Notes under the pieces: model-generated | The model's database searches: none | What the model was told of the DNA's origin: nothing | The model's input: the letters and a program-made list of their open reading frames with translations, nothing else | Position numbers and translations under genes: made by a program | Part shown: piece by piece, positions 793 through 5,836 of the stretch | Position numbering within the stretch: the first letter of the stretch is position 1 | Layout: each line of letters opens with the position of its first letter | From: Frankiaceae bacterium | Lineage (GTDB): Bacteria; Actinomycetota; Actinomycetes; Mycobacteriales; SCTD01 | Length of the DNA: 64,000 bases | Direction of reading: 5' to 3' | Assembly (NCBI GenBank): GCA_016650445.1 | Contig: JAENVS010000002.1 | Location: forward strand, 10,980 to 74,979

Positions 793-1323
793 GTGGCTGA
801 GCTGTGGGGGCTCCTCGCGGATGAGGACCGGCTTCGGGTGTTCTCGGCCATCGCACTCGGTGCCCGGTCGGTGCCCGACATCGCCGACCACACCGGTATG
901 GACCCGCGCACCGTCGTGAAGGCGTTGCAGCGGCTGGAGTCGGGCGGCGTCGTGCGCACCGACGGGCCCGAGTGGGAGCTGTGCCGCGACGTCATCGCCG
1001 CCGAGGCTCGGCGTACGTCCAAGTCGTTCGAGCCGTACGACGAGGAGGGCCTCGCGCCGCAGCAAGCCTCCGTGCTGCGTGCGTTCCTGCGCGACGGGAG
1101 ACTGGCGTCGATCCCGTCGGTCCGCTCCAAGCGGCTCGTCGTCCTGGACCACATCGCGAAGGTCTTCGAGGTCGGCGTCCGTTACAAGGAGCGAGACGTG
1201 GATGCCCTGCTTCGGGCGTTCCACGACGACTACGCGGCCTTGCGCCGGTATCTCGTCGACGAGGGCTTTATGTCGAGGGAGCACGCCGAGTACTGGCGGA
1301 CCGGAGGCAGTGTCAGGGTCTGA
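793..1323 (+). CDS. HTH / DUF2087-like putative transcriptional regulator
   Basis: GTG start. N-terminal winged-helix-like segment (RVFSAIALGARSVPDIADHTGMDPRTVVKALQRLESGGVV). C-terminal part resembles DUF2087 (KRLVVLDHIAKVFEVGVRYKERDVDALL..YAALRRYLVDEGFMSRE). Confidence 0.55.
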   Translation: MAELWGLLADEDRLRVFSAIALGARSVPDIADHTGMDPRTVVKALQRLESGGVVRTDGPEWELCRDVIAAEARRTSKSFEPYDEEGLAPQQASVLRAFLRDGRLASIPSVRSKRLVVLDHIAKVFEVGVRYKERDVDALLRAFHDDYAALRRYLVDEGFMSREHAEYWRTGGSVRV

Positions 1324-1333
1324 ATATGGTGGT

Positions 1334-1357
1334 CCCGGATTGGGCGAGAAATCCGGG
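1334..1357 (+). terminator. Stem-loop downstream of the DUF2087-like gene
   Basis: CCCGGATT-gggcgaga-AATCCGGG is an 8-bp perfect stem starting 11 nt after the stop codon. There is no U-tract, which is common in actinobacteria. Confidence 0.35.
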
Positions 1358-1376
1358 TGATCCGTCCACGGGATTG

Positions 1377-1580
1377 GTCCGATCGGGTGATGCGCGGCCA
1401 ATCGGCTGCGCACGAGGCTTTCCCGTGCAACGGCACGAAATCTGCCGTCCGGCCACCAGGCCGGCGGGCAGGGGGCGAAGATCCGCGCGGTCCTCACCGA
1501 CACCGCACCGGTGCACGGAGGCAGACGGTCGCCTAGACCGGCGGGGAGCCAACGGCGAGCCCGACTTGTCCGGCTGGACG
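1377..1580 (+). promoter_or_regulatory. Conserved structured 5' leader, copy A (upstream of LPFTG surface-protein gene 1)
   Basis: Shares long identical blocks with 3038-3238: GTCCGA-n-CGGGTGATGCGCGGCCA, CTGCCGTCCGGCC, CACCGACACC, GGTGCACGGAGG-n-AGACGGTCGCCTAGACCG, GGGGAGCCA, GGCGAGCCCGA, TGTCCGG. Hairpins at 1430-1448, 1449-1464 and 1526-1540. Confidence 0.55.
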
Positions 1581-1616
1581 AGCGTCGCGGCGCTCCCGCC
1601 TGGATGGACGACGACA

Positions 1617-2852
1617 GTGACCCCTCGTACGCGCCATGTCCCGACAACCAGCACAGTTCACGGGTTTCGGGCACTCGTCGGCGCGGTGGCGCTCCTTGTG
1701 CCGCTGACGCTGTTGTTGTCAGCTTCGCCGGCCGCGGCCGCGGTGCTCACCACGCACGACAAAGTCGGGATCTGCCATGCAATCGGCGGTCCCAAGGCGT
1801 ACGTGACGAACAGCCCGAACATCGACAGCATCGTCAAGGGAACCGGTCACGGCGGCCACGTCGACGACATCATTCCGGCGTTCGACTACGACCTGGGCGC
1901 GGGCGTCAAGCACTACGCAGGCCAGAACGTCGCGCTGATCAGCATCCTGAACAACAACTGCGGTCTGCCCGCGACTGCGCGGGCGGTGGCCCCGACTGTC
2001 GTTCAGTCGCAGTGCGTCAACAACGCGGGCACCGTGCCCACGTACACGATCGTCCCGGTCGCCGGGGTGGTCTACAGCGTCGGCGGCACCCCGGTGACGG
2101 GTACGAACAACGGCGCGGCGGGCAGCGCGATCACCGTCGTGGCAACGGCTGCGTCCGCAGCCATCACCTTGACGGGGAGCACGAGCTTCCCGATCACCTT
2201 CGCCGCGACCCCGACTCCGTGCGGCAGCACCCCCGCAGGCCCAGGACCGGGGAGCACAGGCGATGGGGGCGGCCCGGCACTGGACGGCAACCTCGGTGTG
2301 ACCAAGACGGGGACAGCCACGGCGCAGCCGGACGACGAGCTCGTGTGGAGCATCGTCGTGACCAACACGTCGGGTGCGGCTGCTACCGGCTTCACGGTCG
2401 CCGACAGGCTGGCTCCGGGGCTGTCGTTCAGCCAGGTTCAGGGCAACGACTTCGTCTGCACGCTCGCGGGCCCGAACATCAGCTGCGGTTACACCGGGTC
2501 GCTGGCGGTAGGCGCGAGCGCGACGATCTCGGTGCGGGCCCTCCTCGACGCCGGCTACAAGCCGGATGCGGTCACGAACACCGCTGTTCTGACTCCGGGC
2601 CGGCCGGACACCGACAGCGCGGACAACAGCTCCACAGCGATCACCGCTGTCACGCACCCCGCTGAGGAGTTCACTGGGGGCGGCGGCGGTGCGGTTGTGG
2701 CCCCGCCGGCTGAGACGGCGGGCGGCGGCGCGGCCCTGCCGTTCACGGGGTCGAGCACCGCGCGACTCGCCCAAGCAGCGCTGGCACTCCTGCTGCTCGG
2801 CGGATACCTGCAGGTCCTCGGTCGTCGACGCCGCCCGGAGGTCATCGGGTAG
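1617..2852 (+). CDS. Sortase-anchored surface protein, DUF11-type repeat, LPFTG sorting signal
   Basis: GTG 1617 gives a signal peptide (RALVGAVALLVPLTLLLSASPAAAA). There is a DUF11-like repeat (GVTKTGTATAQPDDELVWSIVVTNTSG..). The C-terminus is LPFTG plus a hydrophobic stretch plus RRRR. The upstream part of the 972..2852 ORF is judged a GC artefact. Confidence 0.8.
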   Translation: MTPRTRHVPTTSTVHGFRALVGAVALLVPLTLLLSASPAAAAVLTTHDKVGICHAIGGPKAYVTNSPNIDSIVKGTGHGGHVDDIIPAFDYDLGAGVKHYAGQNVALISILNNNCGLPATARAVAPTVVQSQCVNNAGTVPTYTIVPVAGVVYSVGGTPVTGTNNGAAGSAITVVATAASAAITLTGSTSFPITFAATPTPCGSTPAGPGPGSTGDGGGPALDGNLGVTKTGTATAQPDDELVWSIVVTNTSGAAATGFTVADRLAPGLSFSQVQGNDFVCTLAGPNISCGYTGSLAVGASATISVRALLDAGYKPDAVTNTAVLTPGRPDTDSADNSSTAITAVTHPAEEFTGGGGGAVVAPPAETAGGGAALPFTGSSTARLAQAALALLLLGGYLQVLGRRRRPEVIG

Positions 2853-2876
2853 TTCGTCGCCGCCGGCGCGGCCCAG

Positions 2877-2906
2877 GCCCCCTGCCCTGCACCGAGGGGA
2901 GGGGGC
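2877..2906 (+). terminator. Imperfect GC-rich stem-loop after surface-protein gene 1
   Basis: GCCCCCTgCCC-tgcaccga-GGGgAGGGGGC forms 10 bp with one G/G mismatch, 25 nt after the stop codon. Confidence 0.35.
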
Positions 2907-3037
2907 TGTGGCCTGCCCGGAGCACCTTCATGATCCCGCGGAACCAATTTCTCACTCTGAGTATCTCGAGCCGTGCGTTCCGTCACTCTCTGAGGTCGAT
3001 TCGGCCCGGAAAGATAGGAAGTACGCACGCGAAGATT

Positions 3038-3238
3038 GTCCGAACGGGTGATGCGCGGCCATCCGCCGTGGAGAACGCTCAACGGGCACGGCAAAACCTG
3101 CCGTCCGGCCGAGCGATCGGCTGGCGGGTGGGGGGCACGGATCCGAGTGGTCCACACCGACACCCACAAGGTGCACGGAGGAAGACGGTCGCCTAGACCG
3201 CTCGGGGAGCCAGTGGCGAGCCCGATCTGTCCGGTACG
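3038..3238 (+). promoter_or_regulatory. Conserved structured 5' leader, copy B (upstream of LPFTG surface-protein gene 2)
   Basis: Collinear with 1377-1580. Core block 3170-3200 matches 1510-1540 at 30/31 positions. Hairpins at 3088-3104, 3105-3124 (an extended version of the copy-A stem) and 3186-3200. Distance to the start codon is the same as in copy A. Confidence 0.55.
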
Positions 3239-3276
3239 ACCAAAGCGCCGCTGCGCTTCGCCGGACGGATGTCGCC

Positions 3277-5661
3277 GTGAACGTTCTCCCTCAGTCCCTC
3301 GCGACCGGCCTGCGACGCCGTGCTGCGCGGCGGGGCGCTGCGCTTGCCCTGGCCGTCGCCGTAGTCGCCCTGTTCGGTGGGGTGCCAGCCTCGGCCGGTG
3401 GCAGCGGGACGGTCAAGGTCGACGGTGACGACGTCGGCGGTCCCGGCAACGCGCCGCACCAGGCGTGCGGGCTGCAGGTCTCCCTGTACGACTTCGACGC
3501 GGGCGCGCACAACGCGGTGGTTACGTGGACCGCGAAGGACACGGGTCTGCCGATCGTCACCACCCCCGCGAGCGGCGCGACCAACCCCTACCCGTTTAAC
3601 GCGAGCGGCAACTCCGAGCTCAACATCTCCCTCCCCTTTGCCCTGCACACCGCCGGTCTCACGTTCCACGCCGGCCTCGGGTACCACGTCACGCTGGACG
3701 TGAGCGTCGACGGCGTCGGCAAGAGCAAGGTCATCTACGTCGGCGCCTGCTCGACGGACGTGGCCCTGTCCAAGACGACGTCGACTCCGACCGTCGCAGT
3801 CGGCGACGCGGTGCACTACACGCTGACCGTCACCAACAACGGCCCGCTGAACGGCGTGGGCTTCCAGGTCACCGACACGCTGCCGGCCGGGTTCACCCTG
3901 ACCTCCATCACGGCCCCCCTGTGGGACTGCGTCGGCACGGGTGTCGACTGCACGTACAAGCCCTCGAGTCCGCCGGTCCTGGTGGGCTCGTCGACGTCCT
4001 TCACCGTCAACGGCACGGCAACGGCCGCGGGCATCCCGTCCATGACGAACAACGCGCACCTTGACCCGCAGGACACGGACAACACCAACAACGCGGCCTC
4101 GGTGGTCGTCAACGTGAACGGCCTCGCGACCTCGCAGGCCGTGACCTTCGCGGACTCGGCCTGTGTGGCCAACCAGTCGACGGCGAACACCTACACGATC
4201 CCTGACCCGATCCCGACCGGTGTGGTCTACAAGATCGGTGCCGCCACCCAGACCGCGGGGCAGCACGCCGCCAGCCCCGGTCTGCTCACGGTCGACGTGA
4301 CTGCGGCTCCCGGCTACACCCTGTCTGGACTGGCGCAGTACACCCACACCTTCCCGGCCGTGGCGACCGGCTGCGAAGCCCCCACGGCGGCGGTGACGAA
4401 GGCCAACAACGCGAACGGGGATGAGACCTTCAGCATCTCGGAGGAGGCGACCTCGGTCTCACAGCCCGTGCAGTTCAAGCTGACGGTCACCAACACCAGC
4501 CCCTACGCGATCGACGTCAACCCGTCGATCTCCGACCAGGTGTGGGTAGGTGCGGAGCCCACGGAGGGCCCCAACCCCACGTCGTACAACTGCCTGCCGG
4601 CGATCACCAACCTGGCGCCCACGGTCAGTGCTTCCTGCGTGTTCACCGCGGACAGCTACTCGCCGGAGGACGGCGTGACCAAGTCCAACCGGGCGACGGT
4701 CACGTTGACCAAGTTCGTTCCTGTGGACGTTGACGTTCCGGGCCTGCGGCGCTTCAGGGCAGCGGCGCTGGTCGCGCCGTTCACCGCCGTCAGCAACGTC
4801 TCGACGGTGAAGACGGTGAAGCCCGTGATCCGCGTCGTCCTGCCGACCCCGGCTGCGGCGGTTGCCCCGACGGCGTCGCAGTCGACGTGCACCAACGGCA
4901 CCGCAACGACTCCCTCGTTCACCGTCCCGACGACGACGGGTGTGGTCTACACGCCGGCCACCGGCGGGACCGCGACGCCGGGCTCGACGGTGACCGTGAC
5001 GGCTGCTGCGGCTCCCGGCTACGTCCTGAGCGGACCGAGCAGCTTCCCGCTGGTCTTCGCAGCGCTGGCGGACTGCAGCATCACGGACAACGTCGGCGTC
5101 AGCAAGACCGGCCCCGGCACCGCACAGCCGGGTGACGAACTGGTCTACGCGATCGACGTGACCAACGTGCGGGGTACGCCGGCCACCGCCTTCACGGTCG
5201 TCGACACCCTGCCCGCGGGGCTGTCGTTCAGCTCCGCCGTCGGCTCCGGCTTCGCCTGCACCAACGCCGCCCAGGTCATCACGTGCGTGTACGGCGGTCC
5301 GGCGCTCACCGTCGGTCAGTCGGCCACCATCTCGGTCCGGGCACTGCTCGACAGCACCTTCAGCGGGACGTCGGTCGCCAACACGGCGGTCGTCGACCCG
5401 GGCCGGGCCGACTCCGACGCCGGTGACAACAGCGCGACCGCGACCACTGCGGTCGTCCCGCTGCCGATCTCCGGCGGTGGAGGCGGCGCCGTGGAGGAGC
5501 CCGCCGCCTCACCGTCGCCCGAGCCCGTCGCCGGTGGTGGAGGGGCCCTGCCGTTCACCGGCATCGACGGCGCCCAGCTCCTGCAGCTCGGAGTCTCGCT
5601 CCTGCTGGCCGGCCTGTTCGTGTCGCTGGCCACCCGCCGGCGGCGGACCAGCGCGGAGTAG
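3277..5661 (+). CDS. Large sortase-anchored surface protein with DUF11-type repeats, LPFTG sorting signal
   Basis: GTG start with signal peptide (RRGAALALAVAVVALFGGVPASA). DUF11-like repeats (VALSKTTSTPTVAVGDAVHYTLTVTNNG; GVSKTGPGTAQPGDELVYAIDVTN). Repeated GVVY..APGY.LSG modules are shared with gene 1. C-terminus is LPFTG plus TM plus RRRR. Confidence 0.85.
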   Translation: MNVLPQSLATGLRRRAARRGAALALAVAVVALFGGVPASAGGSGTVKVDGDDVGGPGNAPHQACGLQVSLYDFDAGAHNAVVTWTAKDTGLPIVTTPASGATNPYPFNASGNSELNISLPFALHTAGLTFHAGLGYHVTLDVSVDGVGKSKVIYVGACSTDVALSKTTSTPTVAVGDAVHYTLTVTNNGPLNGVGFQVTDTLPAGFTLTSITAPLWDCVGTGVDCTYKPSSPPVLVGSSTSFTVNGTATAAGIPSMTNNAHLDPQDTDNTNNAASVVVNVNGLATSQAVTFADSACVANQSTANTYTIPDPIPTGVVYKIGAATQTAGQHAASPGLLTVDVTAAPGYTLSGLAQYTHTFPAVATGCEAPTAAVTKANNANGDETFSISEEATSVSQPVQFKLTVTNTSPYAIDVNPSISDQVWVGAEPTEGPNPTSYNCLPAITNLAPTVSASCVFTADSYSPEDGVTKSNRATVTLTKFVPVDVDVPGLRRFRAAALVAPFTAVSNVSTVKTVKPVIRVVLPTPAAAVAPTASQSTCTNGTATTPSFTVPTTTGVVYTPATGGTATPGSTVTVTAAAAPGYVLSGPSSFPLVFAALADCSITDNVGVSKTGPGTAQPGDELVYAIDVTNVRGTPATAFTVVDTLPAGLSFSSAVGSGFACTNAAQVITCVYGGPALTVGQSATISVRALLDSTFSGTSVANTAVVDPGRADSDAGDNSATATTAVVPLPISGGGGGAVEEPAASPSPEPVAGGGGALPFTGIDGAQLLQLGVSLLLAGLFVSLATRRRRTSAE

Positions 5662-5677
5662 CCGCGCAGCTCCCGGA

Positions 5678-5703
5678 GGCCGCGTCCCACACAGGACGCG
5701 GCC
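5678..5703 (+). terminator. Intrinsic-terminator-like hairpin after surface-protein gene 2
   Basis: GGCCGCGTCC-cacaca-GGACGCGGCC is a perfect 10-bp stem followed by TTCGGTGT, 17 nt after the stop. Confidence 0.55.
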
Positions 5704-5836
5704 TTCGGTGTACGACGGGGATGCTCACGCCCGCGAAAATGGTCCTCCTGTAGTCCGAACGGGCCATGACGGCGGGCGCCCGTCTCGCGCACTCTGACAG
5801 CGGCAACAAAACGGACAGTTCAGTCAGGAGTACATC

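Follow-up and report, generated by a model that had tools for sequence, protein, structure and literature searches.

Riboswitches of the cyclic di-guanosine monophosphate (c-di-GMP)-II class, represented by the Clostridium acetobutylicum structure 3Q3Z (Rfam RF01786), occur mostly upstream of genes for surface-anchor proteins, also in tandem (PMC9481103), and have been described as turning translation ON (PMC7583470). Their kink-turn is documented (PMC4316175), and the c-di-GMP contacts in 3Q3Z include C68, A69, A70, C71, C72, G73, and A74 (PMC7288161). This parent class is found mainly in Firmicutes. Its variants GAG (RF03169) and GCG (RF03170) were reportedly proposed by Weinberg and colleagues (in PNAS, 2017) as possibly recognizing a different signaling molecule and are said to be kept as separate Rfam families for suspected altered specificity; no reported ligand for either was found in the literature searched. 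Here, we describe a 64,000-nucleotide stretch of a Frankiaceae bacterium, a high-GC actinobacterium (contig JAENVS010000002.1, positions 10,980 to 74,979; hereafter, the window), in which two neighboring genes for DUF11 surface proteins are each preceded by one copy, A or B, of a duplicated leader. Our overall reading, which we regard as probable, is that a GAG/GCG-type aptamer of the c-di-GMP-II clan (Rfam CL00127) stands before each DUF11 gene, in the predicted 5' untranslated region (UTR), together with a proposed translational ON switch; that each leader holds one aptamer of this clan is, by itself, very likely. The family is a known one, to which a lineage-specific hairpin in the P3 loop and an unusual upstream module opposing helix P1 (anti-P1) have been added.

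Assignment to the c-di-GMP-II clan

When the whole window was scanned with Rfam at gathering thresholds, exactly two matches were returned, both to RF03169 (c-di-GMP-II-GAG) on the plus strand, i.e., 3122-3236 in copy B (50.5 bits, E = 5.7e-7) and 1462-1575 in copy A (41.2 bits). Each covers model positions 1-86 of 86 and lies above the family's gathering score of 40, so that both copies exceed the curated score of at least one family of the clan. A covariance model, R1, was built only from 23 relatives without the inserted hairpin (insert-free) and contained no sequence of the insert-type to which the window copies belong; it finds copy B with 43.8 bits (E = 8e-8) and copy A, at 1461-1576, with 30.8 bits (E = 1e-4). 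In the R1-based alignment of 37 aptamers, both copies among them, compensatory double changes occur in 19 of the 22 pairs of helices P1-P3, and the covariation score was 0.44 vs. 0.18 in shuffles (0/500 reached it) and far lower in all slid controls, figures that are to be read with the caveat that the alignment was fitted to R1. This alignment replaced one made with MAFFT, which misplaces the 5' strand of P3 when insert-type and insert-free aptamers are combined. In the MAFFT version, the 3' arm of the inserted hairpin and its flank (GGTGCACGGAGG; window 1510-1521 and 3170-3181) are aligned with the insert-free P3 5' strand (GACGCGCGGCC), a likeness that may be coincidence or a trace of some local duplication from which the insert arose.

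Relatives were gathered from loci of DUF11 homologs, loci of proteins with a DUF2087 domain and a helix-turn-helix (HTH), and one metagenome pattern scan. They comprise 14 distinct insert-type leaders of the same build, all syntenic, from related Frankiales (a metagenome-assembled genome, MAG), Mycobacteriales, and soil-type metagenome contigs. A scan of genome contigs used a loose pattern and returned 119 loci, almost all of them chance matches in GC-rich coding DNA; L003, L043, and L059 were real. On the minus strand of L043, a Gemmatimonadales MAG contig, two RF03169 aptamers (811-725 and 552-467) lie ~170 nt apart, a tandem arrangement of the variant class.

The automatic label needs correction, since the best-scoring model is GAG while the diagnostic nucleotides are GCG. 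The RF03169 consensus reads GGCGAGACCGa (...UGGCGAGACCGaCC) and that of RF03170 GGCGAGCCCGa (...UGGCGAGCCCGaCC). From these two lines and the list of parent contacts we infer which nucleotides the family names mean: with the sequences aligned on the shared CCGA, A69-A70-G73 of the parent would correspond to G-A-G in the GAG family and to G-C-G in the GCG family. Both window copies carry G-C-G (G1559, C1560, and G1563 in copy A; G3220, C3221, and G3224 in copy B) within the 3' motif GGCGAGCCCGA. They thus bear the signature of RF03170 and not that of RF03169, which has A where both copies have C (GAGACCGa vs. GAGCCCGA), nor, by the CCGA alignment, the A69, A70, and G73 of the canonical RF01786 pocket, for which they read G, C, and G. 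The gathering score of RF01786 is likewise not reached.

In common with RF03170, the window copies have helices P1-P3, the pseudoknot strands (CGGUCGCC in the P3 loop and GGCGAG.CCG in the 3' tail, present and complementary in both copies), a predicted 5' UTR position, and a P1 3' strand near the ribosome-binding site. They differ from it in the ~28-nt insertion in the P3 loop (hairpin Pi), in GGGGAGCCA for c/uGAGCCA, and in two extra upstream hairpins, Pa and Pb. Neither copy reaches the RF03170 gathering score of 47.9 bits, an operational cut-off rather than a biological feature, whereas insert-free members score 62-80 bits; the shortfall is probably caused by the insertion. Lower-scoring matches to the clan appeared only at an E-value threshold, and no suppressed clan overlap was noted in the gathering-level scan. 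Typical RF03169 members, in contrast to the window copies, are 85-87 nt long without the inserted hairpin and score 63-73 bits. Several insert-free GCCCGA elements were also assigned to RF03169, and the two models are nearly interchangeable; we therefore file the element under the clan with a GCG signature and not under RF03169.

Ligand

The window copies share with canonical RF01786 members the clan, a sequence that fits a kink-turn, the complementary strands of a predicted pseudoknot, the 3' ...CCGA segment that lines the parent's ligand pocket, and the placement, frequent in the parent, before surface-anchor genes. By analogy, c-di-GMP or a close cyclic-dinucleotide relative is the most likely ligand, as favored by the parent class and by the adhesin-type genes controlled. 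That it is c-di-GMP itself is a close call on which we lean slightly to the negative. The nucleotides mapped to parent positions 69 and 70, which contact c-di-GMP in 3Q3Z (PMC7288161), are G and C here, so binding of c-di-GMP is not to be assumed. In addition, insert-free GCG/GAG members precede a mixed gene set (for a methyltransferase, a subtilase, GYD-domain and SRPBCC-type proteins, and many uncharacterized secreted proteins), which also counts against c-di-GMP. Both observations would fit a variant pocket (G-C-G for the parent A-A-G) of the same aptamer that senses a molecule other than c-di-GMP, e.g., another cyclic or a linear dinucleotide, and we tentatively keep this as a serious alternative; if it is true, display of surface proteins in these Frankiaceae would respond to that other molecule. 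It has to contend with the targets of the window copies, since sortase-anchored, adhesin-like proteins are classic targets of the canonical class (PMC9481103), and with the signature position itself, which is C in 13 of the 14 insert-type leaders and A (GAG, GGCGAGACCGA) in the remaining one, with an otherwise identical build. The leader with GGCGAGACCGA was seen at L170 (6229-6425) and is identical in L171-L173.

The position that divides the two Rfam families therefore toggles within one orthologous leader group, which suggests that it is not a specificity switch, bears on whether the ligands of the two families differ, and is a sign that the division into GAG and GCG may lack a functional basis. 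It is further conceivable, though we think it rather unlikely, that the Frankiaceae-type leaders form an architectural subtype of the GAG/GCG variants that senses a non-c-di-GMP molecule to control DUF11 surface display. The P3-loop hairpin, the upstream anti-P1 module, and a fixed promoter/operator block (block 1, below) would be the features of this undescribed subtype, and, given the A/C toggle, GAG and GCG would then form a single functional class with a single ligand. The locus, for its part, extends these orphan variants to a clear output in high-GC actinobacteria, i.e., two paralogous LPXTG-anchored DUF11 proteins in a conserved syntenic locus. Since the two-state model set out below can be tested, the leaders offer a reasonable, well-contextualized system for finding the GAG/GCG ligand.

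Architecture of the leaders

The features of both leaders are collected in Table 1. Non-canonical pairs in P1 are confined to the two outermost positions of each copy. Between P2 and P3 the sequence fits a kink-turn (GGC-GAA-GA...GGA-GCC in copy A; GGC-ACG-GA...GGA-GCC in copy B), with a geometry judged from sequence only. The initial annotation had proposed three hairpins in copy A. Two of them, ACGGCA/TGCCGT (Pa) and CCGGCC/GGCCGG (Pb), are real and kept in relatives, and the second covaries, with the consensus CCGGyC/GrCCGG across leaders. The third, CGGTC-GCCTA-GACCG at 1526-1540, is no helix of the family structure and clashes with P3 and the pseudoknot: CGGTCGCC is a pseudoknot strand and GACCG the 3' strand of P3, so that this hairpin could at most form in the unliganded state.

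Against the Rfam model, the inserted hairpin, Pi, stands out as 28 additional nt; it folds as CCG-A-CACC / loop / GGUG-CA-CGG. Its 7/7 pairs are intact in 14/14 leaders, including one A-U to G-C double change in two sequences, while its loop varies in sequence and in length (~3 to 10 nt). Downstream of the aptamer, hairpin Pc (GAGCGC/GCGCUC) is present in 13/13 complete leaders with G-C to A-U double changes. Double changes are seen in Pb, P3, Pi, and Pc alike, and paired cells make up 96% of the alignment.

Table 1. Coordinates of leader features and genes in the window.
Feature	Coordinates	Strand	Details
Block 1, copy A	1377-1394	+	GTCCGATCGGGTGATGCG
Hairpin Pa, copy A	1430-1448	+	ACGGCA-loop-TGCCGT; helix 96% paired in 14-leader alignment, one-sided changes only
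Hairpin Pb, copy A	1449-1464	+	CCGGCC-ACCA-GGCCGG; 3/6 pairs with compensatory double changes, 98.8% of cells paired (14 leaders)
Aptamer, copy A	1462-1575	+	P1 1465-1472/1565-1572; P2 1474-1476/1548-1550; P3 1483-1492/1536-1544
Kink-turn-like bulge and GA, copy A	1477-1482 with GGA 1545-1547	+	
Inserted hairpin Pi, copy A	1497-1518	+	CCGACACC-loop-GGTGCACGG; part of the ~28-nt P3-loop extension
Pseudoknot, copy A	1526-1533 x 1554-1563	+	8 pairs with a 2-nt bulge
Hairpin Pc, copy A	1580-1595	+	GAGCG-TCGCGG-CGCTC; between aptamer and ribosome-binding site, without U tail
Gene 1 start region	1602-1619	+	Shine-Dalgarno-like GGATGGA 1602-1608; GTG start 1617
Gene 1	1617-2852	+	411-aa DUF11 surface protein, C-terminal LPFTG sortase signal; Pfam DUF11 E = 6.8e-14
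Block 1, copy B	3038-3055	+	GTCCGAACGGGTGATGCG
Hairpins Pa and Pb, copy B	3088-3124	+	Pa 3088-3104; Pb 3105-3124
Aptamer, copy B	3122-3236	+	P1 3125-3132/3226-3233; P2 3134-3136/3209-3211; P3 3143-3152/3196-3205
Inserted hairpin Pi, copy B	3157-3178	+	
Pseudoknot, copy B	3186-3193 x 3215-3224	+	8 pairs with a 2-nt bulge
Expression platform (proposed), copy B	3227-3279	+	CTGTCCGG (3227-3234) pairs CCGGACGG (3261-3268); Pc 3243-3258 enclosed; GTG 3277
Hairpin Pc, copy B	3243-3258	+	
Gene 2	3277-5661	+	794-aa DUF11 surface protein, C-terminal LPFTG sortase signal; Pfam DUF11 E = 2.2e-29

Proposed switch between two folds

Unguided RNAalifold on the leaders returned not the aptamer fold but an alternative one with anti-P1 and anti-Shine-Dalgarno (anti-SD) helices. 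In this fold, CCUGCC at the junction of Pa and Pb lengthens Pb by binding the 5' strand of P1 (GGCAGG), and the P1 3' strand (UUGUCCGG) pairs with CCGGAUGG, which overlaps the SD, so that a long helix closes around Pc. The complementarity to the P1 5' strand lies in the Pa 3' strand and junction in copy A and in CCTGCC at 3097-3102 in copy B (opposite 3127-3132). In copy B, the P1-3'/SD helix is part of both the minimum-free-energy fold and the RNAalifold consensus, and the SD, GGACGGA (3263-3269), ends 7 nt before the start codon. The OFF fold of this copy amounts to -96.9 kcal/mol vs. -97.4 kcal/mol for its minimum-free-energy fold.

Every leader can accommodate both folds: 96% of cells are paired in the aptamer (ON) fold and 94% in the alternative (OFF) fold, for which the anti-SD helix figure comes from 13 leaders. 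In 11/13 leaders, the anti-P1 duplex exceeds at least 97% of equally long segments drawn at random from the same loci. For the P1-3'/SD duplex, at least 96% of random segments are beaten in 7/13, and 0/300 reach it in copy B. The same P1-3'/SD complementarity (GUCC...GGAC, GGAGGAC) can be seen by eye in the insert-free leaders L127 and L140. Another RNAalifold suggestion, in which the 5' strand of Pa (CACGGC) would bind GCCGTG at the start codon, was rejected as not above random in most leaders (0.95 in copy A).

In the model we propose, CCUGCC at the Pa/Pb junction would, without ligand, capture the P1 5' strand (GGCAGG / GGUGGG), and the freed P1 3' strand (UGUCCGG) would pair with CCGGAC/U over the SD, closing the long helix around Pc and hiding the ribosome site. 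With ligand, P1 and the pseudoknot would be stabilized, CCUGCC would return to Pa, and the ribosome site would be free. Such a ligand-responsive translational ON switch is predicted with modest confidence for copy B and is questionable for copy A. It is favored because of the alternative folds, the overlap of the pairing with an SD 7 nt before the start, and the absence of a U-tailed terminator from either leader in a scan of 1250-3350, which found one inside the upstream gene.

The aptamer might instead act on transcription: the long Pc-containing helix could terminate it intrinsically without a U tail or could expose a Rho entry site. The OFF helix of copy B (3227-3268, with Pc inside) is indeed a long GC-rich hairpin just 5' of the start codon, and actinobacterial terminators often lack U tails. 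We nevertheless consider this explanation unlikely: terminator-like sites with U runs are absent from both leaders, the overlap between the helix's 3' arm and the SD gives the standard geometry of translational control, and the complementarity seen in L127 and L140 argues in the same direction.

Several observations weigh against the translational switch or against the overall reading. In the nearest-neighbor model, with pseudoknot and ligand left out of the calculation, the ON fold of B-type leaders is 14-21 kcal/mol less stable than their OFF fold (~21 for copy B), a gap that would have to be paid by the pseudoknot, tertiary contacts, or the ligand, unless the choice is kinetic. P1, anti-P1, and anti-SD vary in the 14 leaders only by G-U wobble, which is compatible with the model but short of proof by covariation; this is as expected because these strands have two partners. 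The pseudoknot is invariant in 14/14 insert-type leaders and shows no covariation, a point listed here although it is neutral. Aptamer-bearing leaders also occur with no DUF11 open reading frame (ORF) called behind them (L174 copy A, 5641-5810, and L175; L169, 5621-5815); these would be orphaned leaders, with the gene lost or the expression platform degenerate. Copy A, finally, has a marginal Rfam score, needs a bulged G in P3, and shows P1-3'/SD pairing at chance level (0.14; 0.60 in the A-type leader of L122).

Duplication of the leader

The recurrence of one block upstream of both DUF11 genes had been the starting observation, and it was confirmed where it had been placed: in a pairwise alignment, leader A (1377-1575) and leader B (3038-3236) are identical at 160/205 positions (78%), compared with a background of 51.6 +/- 1.9% (maximum 57%) when leader A is set against 200 windows drawn at random from the 64 kb. 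Also correct were the identical runs and the offsets of 1660/1661 nt. Identity rises to 82% in the aptamer part and 85% in the core (1496-1575 vs. 3156-3236), and it falls to 54% both in the 53 nt 5' of block 1 and in the first 200 nt of the two coding regions, in line with the claim that the non-coding sequence is better conserved than the adjacent coding sequence. A spacing of exactly 107 nt before each start holds if gene 1 begins at GTG 1617 and fails for the public gene call, which starts at 1698. Similarly, the coding sequences had been called unrelated, which applies to the N-terminal parts of the products, whereas their C-terminal ~280 residues are paralogous (47% identical).

The weak points of copy A, i.e., 41.2 bits with RF03169, 30.8 bits with R1, the bulge in P3, and SD pairing at chance level, are what one would expect if one or both copies, mainly copy A, were decaying remnants of the duplication that no longer regulate. 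The gene-1 leader of L121 lacks the aptamer and the gene behind the A-type leader of L174 is gone, which points the same way. We consider this improbable, given that the A-type leaders of the window, L122, and L174 are 81-87% identical to one another and keep every invariant aptamer nucleotide, that conservation of the leader far exceeds that of the flanking DNA, and that copy B shows no sign of decay. Moreover, the A-type leaders (window A, L122A, and L174A) and the B-type leaders cluster separately across genomes, so that leader and gene must have been duplicated before these organisms diverged, and the notion of a recent duplication remnant fails. Conservation extends beyond the tandem pair, with 14 distinct leaders in related genomes and metagenomes.

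The initial annotation had also proposed a structured cis-regulatory leader of riboswitch type, and this is supported by the 14 leaders of the same build and their compensatory changes; its further suggestion of novelty did not survive, as both copies are assigned to the clan by cmscan. That they represent a new riboswitch class or a diverged cyclic di-adenosine monophosphate (c-di-AMP) riboswitch of the ydaO-yuaA type, for which short strings cited in that annotation are the only argument, can practically be dismissed because a search of both strands of 1300-3320 at E <= 5 gave no RF00379 (ydaO-yuaA) match, whereas RF03169 matches both copies over its full length and R1 from relatives finds both as well. 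Both kinds of element are cyclic-dinucleotide-related leaders, and ydaO occurs in Actinobacteria 5' of cell-envelope genes; RF00379 has, however, another architecture. A permissive Rfam scan of 1300-3320 (E <= 5), including c-di-GMP-I and raiA, returned only the c-di-GMP-II clan and two chance-level matches; the c-di-GMP classes, which had been named among the families to be compared, contained the right lead. A false lead to a novel RNA is thereby removed, as the element belongs to a family already in Rfam.

Block 1

Block 1 (consensus GTCCGAWYGGnKGATGYG, with a palindromic CCG-WW-CGG core) is the best-conserved sequence outside the aptamer. It occurs twice in the window, each time in one of these leaders, and is kept in 14/14 leaders, where its distance to the Pa region is nearly fixed (28-33 nt). 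In L121, the leader of gene 1 (1621-1745) has a block-1-like motif, CCCGTCGGGGGATGCGC, and no aptamer, so that block 1 and the riboswitch are separable modules. A scan of 1250-3350 for sigma-70 promoters found none in either leader, and block 1 has no match to the sigma-70 consensus. Block 1 might serve either as an operator or as a promoter recognized by an alternative sigma factor; the product of the neighboring DUF2087/HTH gene is an obvious candidate for a protein that binds it.

Genes behind the leaders and locus context

Both gene products bear the C-terminal signature of a sortase substrate, with LPFTG followed by a hydrophobic segment and RRRR (C-terminus of the gene 2 product, ...ALPFTGIDGAQLLQLGVSLLLAGLFVSLATRRRR). 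A protein identical to the gene 2 product is on public record from a Frankiaceae MAG, whereas the exact 411-aa product of gene 1 is not on record in the public collection. The public call for gene 1 (384 aa, seen via L120) starts at GTG 1698, so that the charged beginning of the signal peptide is lost. GTG 1617 is preferable, as the signal peptide is then complete and retains its positively charged start.

The syntenic loci share an AurF-like gene, a DUF2087/HTH gene, the leader, the DUF11 gene(s), a small ORF, and RsgA. The DUF2087 protein has an N-terminal winged-helix HTH (window 793-1323), and its gene always lies after the AurF-like gene and directly 5' of the riboswitch-controlled DUF11 gene(s), as seen in the window and in L121, L122, L125, L166, L169, L170, and L174. 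Ten long ORFs of the window were examined for c-di-GMP enzymes; they are housekeeping genes only and include no such enzyme.

A perfect 8-bp inverted repeat (CCCGGATT-gggcgaga-AATCCGGG, 1334-1357) begins 11 nt past the stop codon of the DUF2087/HTH gene and is also kept in the copy-A leader of L174; it could be the terminator of that gene or an operator. Just past the stop codon of gene 1, a strong GC-rich hairpin without a U tail (2870-2912; fold of 2853-2960, -50.5 kcal/mol, z = -1.8) may separate the two transcription units. In L124, a tRNA-Sec gene (3545-3636; RF01852, 76.4 bits) lies directly 3' of the riboswitch-controlled DUF11 gene.

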